Below the pieces are notes generated by a model that was given only the letters and a program-made list of their open reading frames with translations, did no database searches and was not told where the DNA came from. Position numbers and translations under genes: made by a program. From positions 1 to 30,963 of the IMG/VR virus record IMGVR_UViG_2548876954_000010: a stretch of DNA of 30,963 nt. One strand, 5' to 3'. This document shows, in pieces, positions 1,245 to 20,096 of the stretch (positions within the stretch are counted from its first letter, which is position 1; each line of letters starts with the position of its first letter). Origin of the DNA: a virus (lineage: Duplodnaviria > Heunggongvirae > Uroviricota > Caudoviricetes).

Positions 1245-1583
1245 TCATTCGCAAAGTGCTGTCGCAGCATCCATTACGGGATCCAAAGGAATTTTTACTC
1301 CTTCATAATCCGGGCTATTTTTCCAAACAGTATCAATATCGCTCCCCTCAAGCTTTCCAGACTTTACACCATCAATAGCAAACCCATTTAATGGGTATCG
1401 GTCATCTGTTGCTTTGTCGTACACAAAGGCATATCTACCATTAACACAAGACACCGTAGCTTTTTCAAAAGTTAACGGCCAATCATCACCAAACTTAGCA
1501 CCGTCTAAATCCTGTGTTTTTTCAGCGGCTGATGCACCGAAAGAAAGTGAAAGAAATAAAGCTAAAAAAAGCTTACGTTTCAT
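1245..1583 (-). CDS. Small secreted/periplasmic protein of unknown function (moron between repressor and integrase)
   Basis: Start at MKRKLFLALFLSLSFGASA, a classic signal peptide with AxA cleavage motif, with AAGGGA RBS 4 nt upstream. AT-rich relative to the late genes. P2 itself has no gene between C and int, so this is an insertion in my recollection of the canonical layout. Confidence 0.6.
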   Translation of the reverse strand: MKRKLFLALFLSLSFGASAAEKTQDLDGAKFGDDWPLTFEKATVSCVNGRYAFVYDKATDDRYPLNGFAIDGVKSGKLEGSDIDTVWKNSPDYEGVKIPLDPVMDAATALCE

Positions 1584-1591
1584 AATGTCCC

Positions 1592-2428
1592 TTATACGTG
1601 TTTTTCCAATGTGAAAATTACAGCACCTACTGGTGTGATATCTGTAATGCTGCATTCAAACTCGGCAGACTTATTTGACAACCTGACTTTTCCGCCGGGA
1701 AGACGAATTACATCAAAAACATCAAGAGCGCCGTCAATATCAATTAACCAACGCCCATTACTTATGTTCGAAGCAGAACGGTTGACAAGCCAAGAGGCTC
1801 CAACACCTTCAACAAAAATCAACTCCTCTGAGTCAGAGGGTATCATCGAGGGGTCTGGATGCCATTCGCCAGCGTCCTTAAGCTCACCCGCTTCAAGGCG
1901 AAATTTTTTAATTGAAAAACTTGATGTGACCATTTCTCTGTTAGTTCGCATTTGCCCCTTGCCGGTTGCTAACCATTCCAGCGAAACACCAGTATCAAGG
2001 GCACAAGTAACAACTACATCGCCTGGGAAAAAATCACGCCGAACCCATGTGCTAATTGTTCCAGATGATATACCGAGTAAATCACCCAGCTCCTTTTGCA
2101 TAGAAAAACCGTAAGCATCAAGGATGCGTCTCAGAACAGGTTTACCACCTGAAGCCATGACCTTTTCATAAAGCTCTTTGCCCTTCAGGGTCGCACGTGG
2201 AGAGTTTGCTTTTGCAAGCTCCCCTGTCACTAACCATCCGATATCTGCGCCCGTTTCAATAGCACATTCAACAAATACATTGCCCGGAACGCTATCTCTG
2301 GCAAGCCAACTGCTTATGTTGTTGGCATAAATACCAAGTTTTTCGCCAAGTTCTTTTTGCGAGCTAAGTCCATAAGCCGAAAGGATTCTTTCGATAGCCG
2401 GAGCCGCACCATCTCCAAATTTAGCCAT
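1592..2428 (-). CDS. CI-type immunity repressor with tandem-duplicated N-terminal HTH domains
   Basis: 278 aa. Two consecutive copies of the same motif (ERILSAYGLSSQKELGEKLGIYANNISSWLARDSVPGNVFVECAIETGADIGWLVTG and RRILDAYGFSMQKELGDLLGISSGTISTWVRRDFFPGDVVVTCALDTGVSLEWLATG), followed by a ~120-aa C-terminal domain. Divergent from the apl/cII operon and upstream of int, as for a 186 CI-type repressor. Confidence 0.8.
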   Translation of the reverse strand: MAKFGDGAAPAIERILSAYGLSSQKELGEKLGIYANNISSWLARDSVPGNVFVECAIETGADIGWLVTGELAKANSPRATLKGKELYEKVMASGGKPVLRRILDAYGFSMQKELGDLLGISSGTISTWVRRDFFPGDVVVTCALDTGVSLEWLATGKGQMRTNREMVTSSFSIKKFRLEAGELKDAGEWHPDPSMIPSDSEELIFVEGVGASWLVNRSASNISNGRWLIDIDGALDVFDVIRLPGGKVRLSNKSAEFECSITDITPVGAVIFTLEKHV

Positions 2429-2548
2429 GTATCGCCACCAAAATTAATTTTCGCCATTGCAAAATTAAATTTCGCGAACTAAAGTGATGATTATCAACCA
2501 CGATGCACATCAATGCAGTTCACTACAAACAACAGGAGATAATGCGAT
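2429..2548. promoter_or_regulatory. Lysis/lysogeny switch region between repressor and apl-like gene; candidate rightward promoter
   Basis: 120-bp AT-rich spacer between divergent gene starts. Candidate rightward promoter: -35 TTGCAA (2457-2462), 17-bp spacer, -10 TAAAGT (2480-2485). AGGAGA RBS at 2534-2539. P2/186 switches use face-to-face promoters (established for the family); the exact positions here are inference. Confidence 0.4.
2439..2476. promoter_or_regulatory. Two direct repeats (putative operator / Apl-Cox box pair)
   Basis: CAAAATTAATTTTCGCC (2439-2455) and CAAAATTAAATTTCGCG (2460-2476), 15/17 identical, start-to-start spacing 21 bp (two helical turns), overlapping the candidate -35. 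Confidence 0.45.
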
Positions 2549-2920
2549 ATGTCAGATGCAAAATCAATCTCGACGCATGATTCGCAAAACTCACAAAATC
2601 AAACTGTGCTGTTAGATCCGGCTCAGTTTGATGCCATCGTTACCGCTATGCTGCCAGCTCTGCAGACAATGATCCGCTCCGCTATGTCAGACACAATGAC
2701 AGTGAAAGACTTTGCCGCCACTCGCGGTGTAAGCGAGCGTCTGGTCTGGCAATGGCTTGATGAGGGAATCCTCCTCAAAGCTCCAACTAAAGACTTTTCC
2801 AACAAGGAAGAGGCTGGAAAACGAAGCCGCACCCTCGTAAACGTGAAAGCATGGCGCGACAAACTAACCCAGCAAGCGATTGATTGTCGCTACATCGACC
2901 ACCGCATCGCTCTTAACTGA
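2549..2920 (+). CDS. Apl/Cox-like excisionase / transcriptional regulator (HTH)
   Basis: First rightward gene of the switch, strong AGGAGA RBS. Contains an HTH-like segment MTVKDFAATRGVSERLVWQWLDEGIL. Position matches apl (186) / cox (P2). It is longer (123 aa) than 186 Apl as I recall it, so the function is by position and motif only. Confidence 0.55.
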   Translation: MSDAKSISTHDSQNSQNQTVLLDPAQFDAIVTAMLPALQTMIRSAMSDTMTVKDFAATRGVSERLVWQWLDEGILLKAPTKDFSNKEEAGKRSRTLVNVKAWRDKLTQQAIDCRYIDHRIALN

Positions 2921-6711: not shown

Positions 6712-6785
6712 TTCATATCCATATCATGCACATACGGCAATCGCTCTATTCGTTTTTTTTCTTCCCATTTTTTGCCAATACGTGT

Positions 6786-6805
6786 TACTGTATAAATATA
6801 CAGTA
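6786..6805. promoter_or_regulatory. LexA (SOS) box overlapping a candidate promoter
   Basis: TACTGTATAAATATACAGTA is a near-perfect match to the E. coli LexA consensus (CTGT-N8-ACAG, palindromic). Candidate -35 TTGCCA lies upstream; a GGGAGGGA RBS and ATG at 6825 follow. Confidence 0.75.
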
Positions 6806-6824: not shown

Positions 6825-7007
6825 ATGGTTGGCGAACATTGCAGCCGAACGCAGCAAAAGTGGGCTTGTGTGCAATTTATTGCCGAGGTATCTCTGATTG
6901 CAAACTGCAAGCCATCAGACTTAAAGCTCGCGCTCACTCTCATTGCAGACCTAGCAAACAGCGAAAATAACGAAACCGAAGATGATAATTTTTATAAGGC
7001 TGATTAG
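6825..7007 (+). CDS. LexA-controlled small protein; possibly the N-terminal part of a Tum-type antirepressor
   Basis: 60-aa ORF with a strong RBS (GGGAGGGA, spacing 4) 20 bp downstream of the LexA box. It is followed within 3 bp by a dinI-like reading frame. 186 Tum is an SOS-induced antirepressor whose C-terminal part is DinI-like (recollection). Confidence 0.45.
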   Translation: MVGEHCSRTQQKWACVQFIAEVSLIANCKPSDLKLALTLIADLANSENNETEDDNFYKAD

Positions 7008-7009
7008 AT

Positions 7010-7240
7010 TATGAGAATCAATATCACGTTGGATAAAGAACAAAAAATTAGGGCAACAGATCATTGATGCTTTTCAGAATGAAATAACACATCGAGTACA
7101 ATGCGTTTTCCTGCAACAAAAGTTAACGTTAAGAAAGGGTCAATGACTAGTGTAGAGGCTATCGGATTCGATAAAGAGGCGGACAGAGAAACATTAGGCA
7201 GCATATTACAAGAGATGTGGGAAGACGATAGCTGGCGTTA
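7010..7240 (+). pseudogene. dinI-family gene disrupted by two frameshifts (DinI-like domain of a tum-type locus)
   Basis: Three collinear segments across two frames read MRINITLDKEQKIRATDH* / IDAFQNEITHRVQCVF... / MTSVEAIGFDKEADRETLGSILQEMWEDDSWR*. Together they track E. coli DinI end to end as I recall it (MRIEVT..., ...IDALAGELSRRIQYAF..., ...KEDKQRISEILQETWESADDWF...). Stops fall at 7064-7066 and 7143-7145. Confidence 0.5.
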
Positions 7241-7258
7241 AACATAATAACCGTGCTG

Positions 7259-7718: not shown

Positions 7719-8150
7719 TTAGTTGGTTACCTGATTGACACCGAGCGAAAGCAGGTTTGTCACCGCACCGGCAATAACTCCGGGTGTCCCGTCTTTCACC
7801 GCACTGATAATCTTATCGCCCAGCGTTTCATTACCGCCGAGTGCCTCGGGCTTTTTGTTGAGCACGGCGAGTGCTTTCTCGGTCAGGCGCACATCCCGAA
7901 AATAAGTCTGATTGTCTGTTTCATACTGGATGTAGCCGTTTTCACTGAGAAAAGTGAATGTACCCTCAACCACACTACGCAACTGATTCAGTGCTTTCAT
8001 TTCCGGTGAGTTAAGTTGGTCAAAGTAGTCATCAGGTAGCGCGGCGTTAAATTTTTCGTAGGTGATGACCTGCGGCACCGGGAAGTTATCCCATAACACC
8101 GCAAAAATTTCCGCCGTCTGCTGATTAAATAATTCGAGGTTTTTGGACAT
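7719..8150 (-). CDS. Hypothetical 143-aa protein (orphan gene in the A-to-cos accessory region)
   Basis: Minus-strand ORF with AAGGGA RBS upstream of ATG (8148-8150). Ends immediately beside motif copy B. No motif I can assign. Confidence 0.55.
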   Translation of the reverse strand: MSKNLELFNQQTAEIFAVLWDNFPVPQVITYEKFNAALPDDYFDQLNSPEMKALNQLRSVVEGTFTFLSENGYIQYETDNQTYFRDVRLTEKALAVLNKKPEALGGNETLGDKIISAVKDGTPGVIAGAVTNLLSLGVNQVTN

Positions 8151-8796: not shown

Positions 8797-9624
8797 ATGA
8801 CTGGTGTTGTGAATTACGATGTGGTTATCAGGAGTGGTGATCAGCCCGTTGATATGGATTATGCGCTGGAAACGTTAGGCGGAGCATCGGAAGTTACCTG
8901 TTTACTAGCAGAAGCAATCCTACAAAAAAAAGTCGTTAAAAGAAGAAGTCCTGCTAATAAAGCGCGAGCAGTTTTACATCAGAGCTTCCCGAGTTCTTAT
9001 GGACAAAACTTTGCGTTAGCTATAGATGACCCAATATTAAAAGCTCGTTTAGTTGAAATAACCAACCCTGTACTTGCGGAAATTATGGGATTTTACATAT
9101 CTGAAGCTATGTATATACAACCTCCGGCTTTATCAGCACGAGCCAGACATTATATTGAAGAGCTTGAATATCTTGAAGATGAAATTATAAGCCGTATTCG
9201 GAATCCTTTAATACGCATGCACAAAATTAATTACCGTCGCAACTGGGATATTGATTTCAATTTTAAACCTGATGGTAGACAAAGAAAAATAGTGACTTTA
9301 AATACTAGGACTGCAGCAAATCTAACTCACACAACGGTTGAAAGGGAAAGATTTAATATAATTGCAATGGTTACAAGATTCAACTCTCGTACAGGTAATG
9401 GCCGTTTAGTGCTACAAGATGAGGACGAGACTGTTGCTTTTGGTTTTGCCAACCAATTAGGAATGGTTCCGTCCGCACAGAAAAGAATGATTTCTTTGAA
9501 TCTACATAATAATAATGGAAGATCCGATAATTACATATATCTTAGTATGACTGTCAGTAGGGTTGTAATTATGAGCGGTGAGACTGTAAAATATGCAGTA
9601 CACTCTGTGCGTGTATTGGAATAA
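8797..9624 (+). CDS. Hypothetical soluble 275-aa protein, first gene of an AT-rich two-gene cargo cassette
   Basis: ORF with AAGGG RBS. Markedly AT-rich compared with the flanking phage backbone. No TM segment or catalytic motif I can recognise. Its stop (9622-9624) is 2 nt from the next start. Confidence 0.7.
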   Translation: MTGVVNYDVVIRSGDQPVDMDYALETLGGASEVTCLLAEAILQKKVVKRRSPANKARAVLHQSFPSSYGQNFALAIDDPILKARLVEITNPVLAEIMGFYISEAMYIQPPALSARARHYIEELEYLEDEIISRIRNPLIRMHKINYRRNWDIDFNFKPDGRQRKIVTLNTRTAANLTHTTVERERFNIIAMVTRFNSRTGNGRLVLQDEDETVAFGFANQLGMVPSAQKRMISLNLHNNNGRSDNYIYLSMTVSRVVIMSGETVKYAVHSVRVLE

Positions 9625-9626
9625 GT

Positions 9627-10376
9627 ATGAATAGAATTAAGTGCATATGTGGGTTGATACTAGCTGCTGCTTGGGCAGCGTACTATCTTCATTTTGGCAT
9701 AGACGGAAGCCTCTCCCAAAAAACTGAAGTTTGGGGACAGTTTGGCGACTACGTAGGTGGGGTGGTCAACCCCATTTTAAGTTTTATAACCATATATCTA
9801 CTTATTAACTCAATAGGGTTACAGCGCGAATCTAATGAAAGCTTAACCAATGAAATAAAAAGACAAGAGAAGCTAGAGGAATATAAAAAATTTGAGCTAC
9901 GATTCTTTCGCTTGATTGAATCGCAGGAGGAAAACTTCAGTCGTTTTAAAATATGTATATCACAACAGGATGATGATGAGCAAAATGTTGATGAACAGTT
10001 AGAAAAAACAGATGAAATATTGAGTGGTGGAGCAGCAGTAACATTCATTGAAGATTGTTTGTTACCCCTCAAAGAGGCTGGAGTTAGCAAGGAGCGTGTA
10101 TTCCATTGGTTAGATAGTTTGGATGATGATGGATCATTTTTTTCATTAGTAAGACGTTTCTATCTCATTCTCAAATTAGTCGATGCCAATACACTTACAA
10201 AAAGCGAGAGAGATGAAATGTATGAAACGTTGATTAATCTTACTGATATTAAAGTAATTAGCATCATTGCAATCTTGAGTTTGCATTATGATTGGTACGC
10301 AATCAAATACATTAAGGCAACAAAAATTCTTGACAAGGAAGGAGTTAGGGAATTCGTTGAAATGTATAAAATTTAA
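9627..10376 (+). CDS. Hypothetical membrane protein (two N-terminal TM helices plus acidic cytoplasmic domain), second gene of the cassette
   Basis: N-terminus has two hydrophobic helices (ICGLILAAAWAAYYLHF and VGGVVNPILSFITIYLLINSIGL). The rest is charged and Asp/Glu-rich. AT-rich, closely spaced after the upstream gene, followed by a terminator. Confidence 0.7.
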   Translation: MNRIKCICGLILAAAWAAYYLHFGIDGSLSQKTEVWGQFGDYVGGVVNPILSFITIYLLINSIGLQRESNESLTNEIKRQEKLEEYKKFELRFFRLIESQEENFSRFKICISQQDDDEQNVDEQLEKTDEILSGGAAVTFIEDCLLPLKEAGVSKERVFHWLDSLDDDGSFFSLVRRFYLILKLVDANTLTKSERDEMYETLINLTDIKVISIIAILSLHYDWYAIKYIKATKILDKEGVREFVEMYKI

Positions 10377-19259: not shown

Positions 19260-20096
19260 CTAACCTCGTATTATTCCTCTCGATATTTTTATTGCTGGGT
19301 TTTCCTTTCTTATTTCATTTTTAATTTGCTCATCACAAATTAAATAATCTATGTTTTTTGCTTTAACAAGTTCTTTAACGCTAATGTTAATTGAATTTAA
19401 TAGATTTGCATTCCGCATGTTAGCCCCTTCATAAGTAACGGATTTAAAATCACATCCTTTTAATATGCAGCTTTTCATTTCGCTATCTGTAAAATACCCC
19501 CCTTCAAAACTGCAGTTTTCGAAAGTAACATTTTGAAAACGTGTATTAAATGCCTTAATATTTCTTAGCTTGCAGTTTTTGAATTTAACACTCTTAACTC
19601 TATTGCCTGTAATATTTAGAGCTTGAATTGTGCAATTATCGAAAGAACAATCTCTAATGTATGATTCGCTCATATTCAAGCCGGTTAAGTCAGCGTCTTT
19701 AAAATGTAAGTATTTGATAGTGGACATTTTATCAAGTTCAATCCTTGGAACTTGAATGTTATATATTCCTTTGGCATTTAACTGACGTATGATTTTTATC
19801 TTCATAATATTCAGTTCTGCAGAAGAATGCTTTGCCAGATTTTCAAGATCTTCAATTAGTTCGTGAATAGCATCTTTATTTTGCCTTTTATTTTCAAAAT
19901 AGTAAAGGATCACACCCAAAACAAGAAAGTCTAAAATTGAAGAATTTGCATTAACAAGAAAATTCTCCATGAATTTTGAGTTGTAGTTATCATTATAAAC
20001 AGACAACCCTACTATAAGCCCGGAGTATAAAAAAAAGATACCTATAATATATTTCATATTGCTTATTGTACGCCTAAAAGATGAAGTTCTTTTCAT
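19260..20096 (-). CDS. Membrane-anchored pentapeptide-repeat protein (moron, antisense to the late operon)
   Basis: Minus-strand ORF. Start taken at MKRTSS (20094-20096), with 20141 also possible. Two N-terminal hydrophobic helices (YIIGIFFLYSGLIVGLSV, ILDFLVLGVILYYF), then ~20 tandem pentapeptide repeats (CSFDN CTIQA LNITG NRVKS VKFKN CKLRN IKAFN TRFQN VTFEN CSFEG ...). Very AT-rich against a GC-rich backbone. Confidence 0.7.
   Translation of the reverse strand: MKRTSSFRRTISNMKYIIGIFFLYSGLIVGLSVYNDNYNSKFMENFLVNANSSILDFLVLGVILYYFENKRQNKDAIHELIEDLENLAKHSSAELNIMKIKIIRQLNAKGIYNIQVPRIELDKMSTIKYLHFKDADLTGLNMSESYIRDCSFDNCTIQALNITGNRVKSVKFKNCKLRNIKAFNTRFQNVTFENCSFEGGYFTDSEMKSCILKGCDFKSVTYEGANMRNANLLNSINISVKELVKAKNIDYLICDEQIKNEIRKENPAIKISRGIIRG

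Follow-up and report, generated by a model that had tools for sequence, protein, structure and literature searches.

The immunity repressor gene cI considered here occupies positions 1592-2428, on the minus strand, of a 30,963-nucleotide stretch of tailed-phage DNA (Caudoviricetes; IMG/VR record IMGVR_UViG_2548876954_000010), the whole of which is called the window below. The gene encodes CI, a protein of 278 amino acids (aa), as assigned from its open reading frame (ORF), from Pfam, and from 78% identity over window CI residues 12-278 to the CI of Salmonella phage PSP3 (AAN08403, 286 aa; GenBank 2002); the identical protein is entered in RefSeq as WP_001407048.1, 'phage repressor protein CI'. 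The DNA around cI is 100% identical to a prophage of Escherichia coli TUM14697, whose integration site adjoins yfiB/dgcN and whose gene order reads int - DUF2511 - cI / gp30-like - cII - fil ... A .... The nearest isolated phage is PSP3 (genus Eganvirus, in the 186 branch of the P2-like phages), and the window CI is the repressor of a PSP3-type, 186-like E. coli prophage of that genus. Few alternatives to the lambda switch are understood quantitatively; the 186 switch is among them, and 186 CI is odd in that one helix-turn-helix (HTH) domain serves two unrelated operator classes and in that the DNA is wrapped and looped on a 14-mer wheel; to go by the title of a 2002 report by Shearwin et al. 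(cited in PMC3675496), the single HTH of 186 CI reportedly recognises two distinct sequences. The window CI, in contrast to this one-headed protein, carries a genuine covalent duplication of the HTH domain.

The duplication is seen by several methods. Pfam PF07022 (Phage_CI_repr) matches two stretches of CI with an E of 3.4e-48, and PF16452 (Phage_CI_C) matches residues 172-271 with an E of 8.7e-21. The envelopes of our own hidden Markov model (HMM) place the two modules at residues 8-72 (HTH1; 2213-2407, minus strand) and residues 95-159 (HTH2; 1952-2146, minus strand), and a BLASTP comparison of the two halves aligns them without a gap, with 34 of 64 residues identical (53%; E 6e-26). An AlphaFold2 model based on a 64-sequence alignment, with a mean predicted local distance difference test (pLDDT) score of 79, resolves three confident domains, a pair of five-helix bundles and a beta domain, separated by low-confidence linkers at residues 73-82 and 161-169. 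The order is thus HTH1-linker-HTH2-linker-C-terminal domain (CTD). The original prediction, made from the letters of the window, had described two consecutive CI-type HTH copies with identical motif spacing followed by a C-terminal domain, and had put 186 CI at fewer than 200 aa with one such domain. Pfam, the HMM, BLASTP and AlphaFold2 all agree with the first description, the ungapped 64-residue alignment confirms the spacing, and 186 CI indeed has 192 aa and one module; domain annotation and structure prediction, which had been proposed as the check, find two HTH modules, the second copy not being a linker.

The inter-HTH linker (residues 73-94; 2147-2212, minus strand) is first disordered, with a pLDDT below 50 at residues 73-82, and then forms a conserved helix at residues 83-93 (KGKxLYxxIM-xGGK), the positions K82, G83, K84, L86, Y87, E89, G94 and G95 of this region being invariant or nearly so. 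The near-invariant helix/motif LKGKxLYxxIMxxGGK at CI residues 82-95 (2144-2185) is missing from single-HTH relatives, whose sequence begins at GGK. The CTD (residues 172-271; 1616-1915, minus strand) is an oligomerisation domain of the 186 CI type, as judged from PF16452 and from its likeness in sequence and fold to PDB entries 2fjr/2fkd.

The two-headed CI is a family trait of the PSP3-type phages and is not peculiar to the window. More than 120 protein clusters across Enterobacterales have it; the best 120 of 836 homologues all measure 267-287 aa, their sources being Klebsiella, Enterobacter, Salmonella, Citrobacter, Cronobacter, Kosakonia, Pantoea and Brenneria; in an exhaustive HMMER scan about 10 clusters at 50% identity share the architecture, and further, apparently independent, two- and three-HTH lineages are also seen. 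186 CI aligns to residues 97-271 of the window CI, i.e., to HTH2 and the CTD (175 residues, E 1.8e-25), and every single-HTH relative likewise aligns within residues 93-275. A neighbour-joining tree sets HTH1 apart in a clade of its own and groups HTH2 with genuine single-HTH CIs. These alignments and the tree indicate that HTH2 plus the CTD is the ancestral repressor, HTH2 being orthologous to the single N-terminal domain of ordinary 186-type CIs, and that HTH1 is an N-terminal addition. No earlier description of a two-HTH 186-type CI was found in the limited library of literature searched, and the one comment on the PSP3 protein found there, in a published survey (PMC3448106), credits it with 'a longer C-terminal domain' than that of 186 CI, not with a second HTH. 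The consequence for annotation is that this published description of PSP3 CI is corrected.

Multiplied heads also occur elsewhere among the homologues. Two, three or up to six HTH modules are found in P0136/P0156/P0215, P0184/P0196/P0200, P0227, P0226, P0234 and P0218, and each head of P0136 is closer to different single-HTH CIs than to its partner head, a pattern more suggestive of fusion or recombination than of a simple tandem duplication. The 335-aa sequence P0239 combines two Phage_CI_repr-type HTHs with an apparently genuine S24 domain (GDSMRPT ... RVKRL), and two-headed self-cleaving repressors probably exist, in a different lineage.

The two heads of the PSP3-type CI have evolved in opposite ways. 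Within a heteroimmune set consisting of the window prophage, PSP3/613R3, Midge/RCIP0057 and SW9, HTH2 is almost letter-for-letter constant, whereas HTH1 differs, chiefly in helices 2-3. In 120 cluster representatives the column entropy averages 0.86 in HTH1, 0.21 in HTH2 and 0.76 in the CTD, with 70% of the HTH2 columns invariant. Between the four immunity types the proportion of nonsynonymous differences (pN) is 0.17-0.33 in HTH1 and 0.03-0.06 in HTH2, and the proportion of synonymous differences (pS) in HTH2 is 0.57-0.88, near saturation in most pairs, synonymous sites being saturated in HTH1 also; the high pS together with the low pN shows that the constancy of HTH2 reflects selection and not recent exchange. 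At the DNA level the divergence forms an island at about 2140-2500 that comprises the operators, HTH1 and the linker, with flanks that are 80-95% identical. Deep clusters, at 45-61% overall identity, retain the same ranking of the two heads, with mean identities of 67% for HTH2, 46% for HTH1 and 31% for the CTD.

As the original prediction had said, the switch region beside the cI start contains a pair of direct repeats 21 bp apart, CAAAATTAATTTTCGC (2439-2454) and CAAAATTAAATTTCGC (2460-2475). They have no other occurrence in the window. Each repeat unit, 16-17 bp long, is symmetric in 7 of 8 pairs and so is itself a near-palindrome. The distal operator unit, CCAAAATTAATTTTCG(C) (2438-2454), lies 10 bp from the cI start, like the 186 pR sites, and the proximal unit, GCAAAATTAAATTTCGC (2459-2475), overlaps the -35 and the spacer of a candidate pR for the rightward early operon (TTGCAA-17 nt-TAAAGT; 2457-2485, plus strand), which is proposed at the level of consensus. 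The layout of the proximal unit recurs in relatives between conserved -35 and -10 blocks (TGTAAA / TAGAT, in the cI sense). A promoter/terminator scan of 2300-2750 returned nothing above threshold, the candidate pR included, so that the assignments of pR and pL are drawn from weak consensus and conservation. No convincing third unit was found 21 bp to either side.

A set of 80 bacterial-genome loci (60 two-headed, 20 with a single HTH2-type head) was retrieved with HTH2-derived peptide patterns. An automatic search of the 80 loci for the best direct repeat was noisy, and anchored inspection and palindrome search were more informative. In the 60 two-headed loci the sequence between the pR -35 and -10 blocks is a plain inverted repeat in most groups, and this sequence tracks the type of HTH1 helix 3 while HTH2 stays constant: helix PANNISSWIQR is accompanied by the palindrome ATCGCAAATGCGAT, APNNISSWQQR by TCGCAAAATGCGA, PSNSISTWIQR by GATCGAAAATGCGATC, PTNTISNWVQR by ACACGTAACGTGT, PRSTVSNWVSR by ATGCCGCATTATGCGGCAT, PKSTVSNWVSR by ATCCCGCATTTTGCGGGAT, and YANNISSWLAR, the helix of the window CI, by GCGAAATTTAATTTTGC. 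This co-variation, together with the HMM, entropy and pN results that mark HTH1 as the variable head, makes it likely that HTH1 reads the immunity-specific pR operators. All PSP3-type switch regions (L001, L005-L008, L013-L030) also contain a conserved TGCA-N6-TGCA pair, situated between the candidate pR and pL and found at 2504-2517 in the window. As an HTH2 site this pair was dropped for want of enrichment in the window (13 found, 13.5 expected); the Apl sites of 186 lie there, and by analogy the pairs may be sites of the Apl/Cox analogue.

A second kind of element goes with HTH2. The 20 retrieved loci with an HTH2-type head only encode CIs of 194-196 aa (218-226 aa in some ORF calls, which reach further upstream) with the recognition helix LSSGTISTW[VI]RR. 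In 18 of them one prominent palindrome lies about 52-56 bp upstream of cI, with the sequence AACTTGCATTTGCAAGTT or one close to it, a near-match being at most 4 mismatches in the eight HTH2-only loci checked. One variant has symmetric changes (AACTCGCATTTGCGAGTT); L088, which also encodes an HTH2-only CI, has no copy at -56. The single-HTH CIs of Rahnella/Ewingella (196 aa, e.g., P0133) share the CTD family and the palindrome with the window CI, and their helix LSSGTISTWVRR is near-identical to ISSGTISTWVRR of the window HTH2. They differ from it in having no HTH1 and mostly a single palindrome, which is presumptively their main operator, and their prophages have another early operon (RepB-like, TraR, gpA).

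The two-headed loci were then searched with the 18-mer palindrome, allowing at most 4 mismatches. The 60 loci yielded 89 matches, 87 of which lie within -600 to +300 of cI; the palindrome is found inside cI, about 200 nt from its start, in 40 of the 60, and about 500 nt upstream of cI, where the apl analogue meets cII, in 26, with perfect copies (0 mismatches) in L053 and L068. The window contains exactly two matches in 31 kb, compared with a simulated mean of 0.42, namely AGTTTGCTTTTGCAAGCT inside cI at codons 70-76 (2203-2220) and AATTTGATTATGCAAGTT within the 32 bp that separate the stop of the apl analogue from the start of cII (2920-2937). The derived pattern ARYTTG-N6-CAARYT also occurs in the window at these two places only, a result that is partly circular because the pattern was derived from these sites. 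PSP3, Midge, SW9 and the genome of the window prophage each have a third copy, situated 45-60 bp upstream of the late-activator gene pag/ogr; in the last of these genomes it falls 14-31 bp past the window's right end. In the 186 record, CI sites are annotated within cI (FL), where apl meets cII (FR) and between D and B (pB). The positions of the three palindromes match FL, FR and pB exactly, which suggests that CI may occupy them. Phage 186, RE2010, YenM_324 and L012, all with other head types, have no copy of the palindrome.

The palindrome within cI is constrained as DNA. The Ala72 codon that it contains is GCA in 49 of 49 sequences, whereas all other conserved alanines use all four codons; codons 71-74 carry 1.1-1.6 bits of third-position information, the mean over the gene being 0.42; and lineages with a different peptide at this place (..NSHLQT..) still spell TCGCATTTGCAAAC. 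Taken with the pR co-variation, the most economical reading of these sequence comparisons would be that HTH2 reads the conserved palindromes, including the putative sites at 2203-2220 and 2920-2937, and that HTH1 reads pR. Two other arrangements were observed among the loci. In Serratia prophages (L036-L047, L064) the HTH2-type palindrome GACTTGTAAATGCAAATT adjoins the operator TCGCAAAATGCGA at pR, about 10-80 bp upstream of cI, with the two centres about 13.5 bp apart, and both heads may act at pR in this lineage. The single-HTH CI of L012 has a related but different helix, GNGTVSTWIKR, and the locus lacks the AACTTGCA palindrome; upstream of its cI, at positions 1433-1501 of L012, TTGTTATCTGT is repeated directly three times at intervals of about 29-30 bp, a pattern that fits helix/operator co-variation inside the HTH2 clade.

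The tum locus is located further to the right. A LexA box, TACTGTATAAATATACAGTA (6783-6802), which is identical in PSP3, stands in front of an intact tumA (6825-7007, plus strand), assigned as a 60-aa LexA-controlled antirepressor from its homology to PSP3 TumA (about 97% identity). It is followed by a DinI-like tumB remnant (7011-7241, plus strand), recognised from the Pfam DinI match of its 3' piece and by comparison with PSP3: a 1-nt insertion near 7050 relative to PSP3 leaves the mid-domain in another frame, with a stop at 7065-7067, and the 3' part (7101-7241) is in the original frame (DinI, E 3.4e-12), only a 32-aa fragment being annotated in RefSeq. The 'decayed tum locus' of the original prediction is therefore correct for the frameshifted tumB but not for tumA and its LexA box. 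The antirepressor activity of PSP3 is stated to sit in the upstream gene (personal communication cited in PMC3121763), and 186 is described as being induced through the LexA-controlled antirepressor Tum (PMC7708051). By analogy, induction of the window prophage would proceed through LexA-controlled TumA and not through RecA-stimulated self-cleavage. TumA at 95-99% identity is found in just those ten phage records whose CI is two-headed, which span four immunity types, and its target must therefore be a conserved part of CI, HTH2 or the CTD; an additional TumA-docking role of HTH2 is compatible with this. Co-variation of TumA with HTH2 was also considered as evidence of docking and was set aside as confounded by overall relatedness.

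Other explanations of the protein and its sites have to be weighed. That the long ORF is an artefact, in which two repressor genes were fused by a sequencing or assembly error or the start was wrongly called, has nothing but the unusual ORF length in its favour and is virtually untenable, given that an uninterrupted ORF of 267-287 aa recurs in more than 120 clusters, in many genera and in ten isolated phages, that all parts of CI are under purifying selection, and that DNA at least 99.9% identical is present in two independent E. coli genomes. The original prediction had also taken weak Ser/Lys-like patches in the CTD (GASW ... GGKVRL) as a hint of an S24, LexA-like autoproteolytic fold, and had speculated that a RecA-sensitive repressor would explain the tolerance of a decayed tum. 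The patches do exist but do not line up with the catalytic residues of LexA, and the CTD model does match the C-domains of LexA, lambda CI and UmuD' in Foldseek (E 1e-6 to 1e-3), but with a template modelling (TM) score of about 0.6 these fall well behind the CTD of 186 CI (2fkd_A; TM 0.88, root-mean-square deviation 1.8 Å), and Pfam gives no Peptidase_S24 match in CI even at E<=1. A weak colinear hhalign alignment to E. coli LexA includes DPS, NG and GxKVxL; in this same alignment, which has a low probability of 3.5%, the catalytic Ser119 and Lys156 of LexA face Gly210 and Phe238, the eight-residue segment bearing the LexA nucleophile is deleted in CI, and CI Lys247 pairs with a non-catalytic LexA lysine. 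The residue equivalent to Ser212 is Ile in 186 CI. Two Ala-Gly candidates, EAGEL (178-182) and DAGEW (185-189), do precede the CTD in the hinge, the first being SG in most relatives, and with the dyad missing such a hinge site is moot. The broken tumB would suit a self-cleaving CI, whereas the induction of 186 through Tum and the intact tumA and LexA box in the window speak against one. The CTD thus resembles LexA only remotely in fold and lacks the Ser/Lys dyad, and a LexA-like, RecA-stimulated self-cleaving CI that makes tum dispensable is highly improbable.

The remaining alternatives concern how the heads are used. The original prediction proposed that both heads of one monomer sit side by side on adjacent half-sites, with the 21-bp direct repeats as the signature. 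However, the single-HTH 186 CI is described as binding one operator with each dimer of its wheel, at a spacing of two helical turns (PMC3675496), so that the spacing is uninformative on two heads per monomer, and the repeat units are near-palindromic. Repeats real and unique to the switch, with pairs 18-22 bp apart also in PSP3, Midge, SW9 and 613R3, speak for such a tandem arrangement, and the abutting palindrome and operator of the Serratia group make a composite reading possible in some lineages; yet the pR operators of the relatives are plain inverted repeats that vary with HTH1 alone, HTH2 being unchanging, and no conserved HTH2-type element stands beside each unit in the window. The prediction itself had held that sites inverted instead of direct would count against it; inverted sites are largely what the relatives show, and the tandem arrangement is improbable. 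A 21-bp unit made of a conserved HTH2 half (TAAATCG) and a variable HTH1 half was tried and rejected, as it fits some groups only and overlaps the -10/-35 blocks. Somewhat less remote, though still unlikely, is the idea that HTH2 no longer binds DNA and serves as a TumA docking surface or as a structural spacer or dimerisation module, the palindromes being bound by some other conserved factor or being promoter elements. The constancy of TumA in all ten two-headed phages despite their four immunity types would agree with this, as would a TumA homologue in L088 with its single HTH2-type CI and the -35-like TTGCA within the palindrome. In the Rahnella/Ewingella CIs, however, the HTH2-type head is the sole DNA-binding domain, so that its fold and helix are binding-competent; the palindrome occupies three 186 CI binding positions and is absent with other head types; and TumA falls to 30-77% identity in deeper lineages, where HTH2 keeps 64-84%. 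Docking and DNA binding are, moreover, not mutually exclusive.

The genes around the switch complete the picture of the locus. The first gene of the rightward operon (2549-2920, plus strand; 123 aa) is assigned, from its ORF and homology, as the PSP3 gp30-type analogue of Apl/Cox. Its product is not recognisable as Apl or Cox and has a weak Phage_Cox match (E 0.031); the PSP3 protein of this type is listed as a singleton in a survey (PMC3448106), and for Midge the annotation of the gp30-type gene names a Mesorhizobium DNA-binding protein as an HHpred match. The DUF2511 gene (1245-1583, minus strand), between cI and int within the lysogenic operon, encodes a signal-peptide-like N-terminus, is conserved through PSP3 (gp28) and every relative, and probably serves lysogenic conversion or is a moron. 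The stretch from the tum region to the portal gene holds ORFs of 275 aa and 249 aa without a family (8797-10376, plus strand), membrane helices being predicted for the 249-aa one, and on the other strand a 143-aa ORF without family assignment (7719-8150, minus strand); this stretch is a typical P2-like cargo hotspot. A pentapeptide-repeat gene at about 19260-20096 on the plus strand (11645-12481 in L003) is inserted in opposite orientation between the baseplate and tail-completion genes.

In comparison with known systems, the window CI shares with 186 CI (PDB 2FJR/2FKD) the families PF07022 and PF16452 and the aligned HTH2 and CTD, and the two phages share pR operators beside the cI start two helical turns apart, a LexA-controlled Tum-type antirepressor, and extra sites inside cI, at the apl/cII junction and before the late activator gene, those of the window being putative. 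They differ in that 186 has one dual-specificity HTH, flanking sites (ATTCAC-N5-GTGAAT) unlike the window palindrome, and a single tum, which in the window is split into tumA and tumB. The CIs of PSP3, SEN1, SW9, SI22, Midge, 613R3 and RCIP0057 are two-headed, 64-78% identical to the window CI over the match and near-identical in HTH2 and the CTD, and this group has the same gene orders cI-DUF2511-int and gp30-cII-fil, tumA and the three palindromes; differences in HTH1 and in the pR operators presumably make for a different immunity type, and tumB is broken in the window prophage. LexA, lambda CI and UmuD (Peptidase S24) resemble the window CI in an N-terminal DNA-binding part, a related beta-rich C-terminal fold and an SOS-linked switch, but the window CI has no S24 signature or aligned dyad and has the nucleophile loop deleted, and its link to the SOS response would run through the antirepressor.

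These observations can be combined in a mechanism towards which we lean, if only slightly, as the best explanation of the whole. A second HTH has been added at the N-terminus of a 186-type CI that consisted of an HTH and an oligomerisation domain. HTH1 (8-72) would be the immunity determinant and would bind as a dimer to the two near-palindromic operators over pR (2438-2475), and the ancestral HTH2 (95-159), near-constant across heteroimmune phages, would bind the 18-bp ARYTTG-N6-CAARYT in cI (2203-2220), at the apl-analogue/cII junction (2920-2937) and upstream of pag/ogr. Looping by CTD oligomers would connect pR with the flanking sites, in the manner of 186, and SOS induction would occur via the LexA-controlled TumA. 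The sequences show the domain architecture, the unequal conservation of the heads, the co-variation of HTH1 with the operators, and that the palindromes exist, where they lie and that they are constrained as DNA; the pairing of heads with sites, the oligomerisation, the looping and the action of TumA are inferred. Several points weigh against this mechanism. The AlphaFold2 monomer shows no confident HTH1-HTH2 packing or inter-domain geometry (predicted TM score 0.41) and speaks neither for nor against a single-chain pseudo-dimer, and the window phage has two strong pR units where 186 has three. All assignments of heads to sites in PSP3-type CI are correlative. The constancy of HTH2 in the 80-locus set follows by construction from the way the loci were retrieved, unbiased support for it coming from the entropy, pN/pS, single-HTH alignments and deep-cluster identities. 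The window copies of the palindrome are imperfect, with 4 mismatches to the reference and 6 of 9 symmetric pairs; since the palindrome contains the -35-like TTGCA/TTGCAA, some copies may be promoter elements, and the palindromes could be sites for another conserved protein (CII, the Apl analogue or Ogr). Finally, the HTH2-type palindrome beside the HTH1-type pR operator in the Serratia group indicates that a split between pR and flanks is not universal.

Whether the duplication split the dual operator specificity of 186 CI, so that HTH1 and pR became a swappable immunity cassette and HTH2 a fixed reader and possibly the target of TumA, is in our judgement evenly balanced. If it did, each CI dimer would be bivalent and able to bridge pR and distal sites. 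Heteroimmune PSP3-type phages would then share late-gene repression, looping sites and SOS induction and differ only at pR, and immunity would be exchangeable as a cassette of about 360 bp, with induction and long-range regulation untouched. Cross-talk between heteroimmune prophages of Klebsiella, Enterobacter, Salmonella and E. coli, through TumA and the HTH2 sites, would also follow. The results suggest a division of labour between a variable and a fixed head that is undescribed and testable, and a widespread natural relative of 186 CI, its two tasks apparently lying on different heads, would offer a clean way to separate pR repression from looping and late-gene control.

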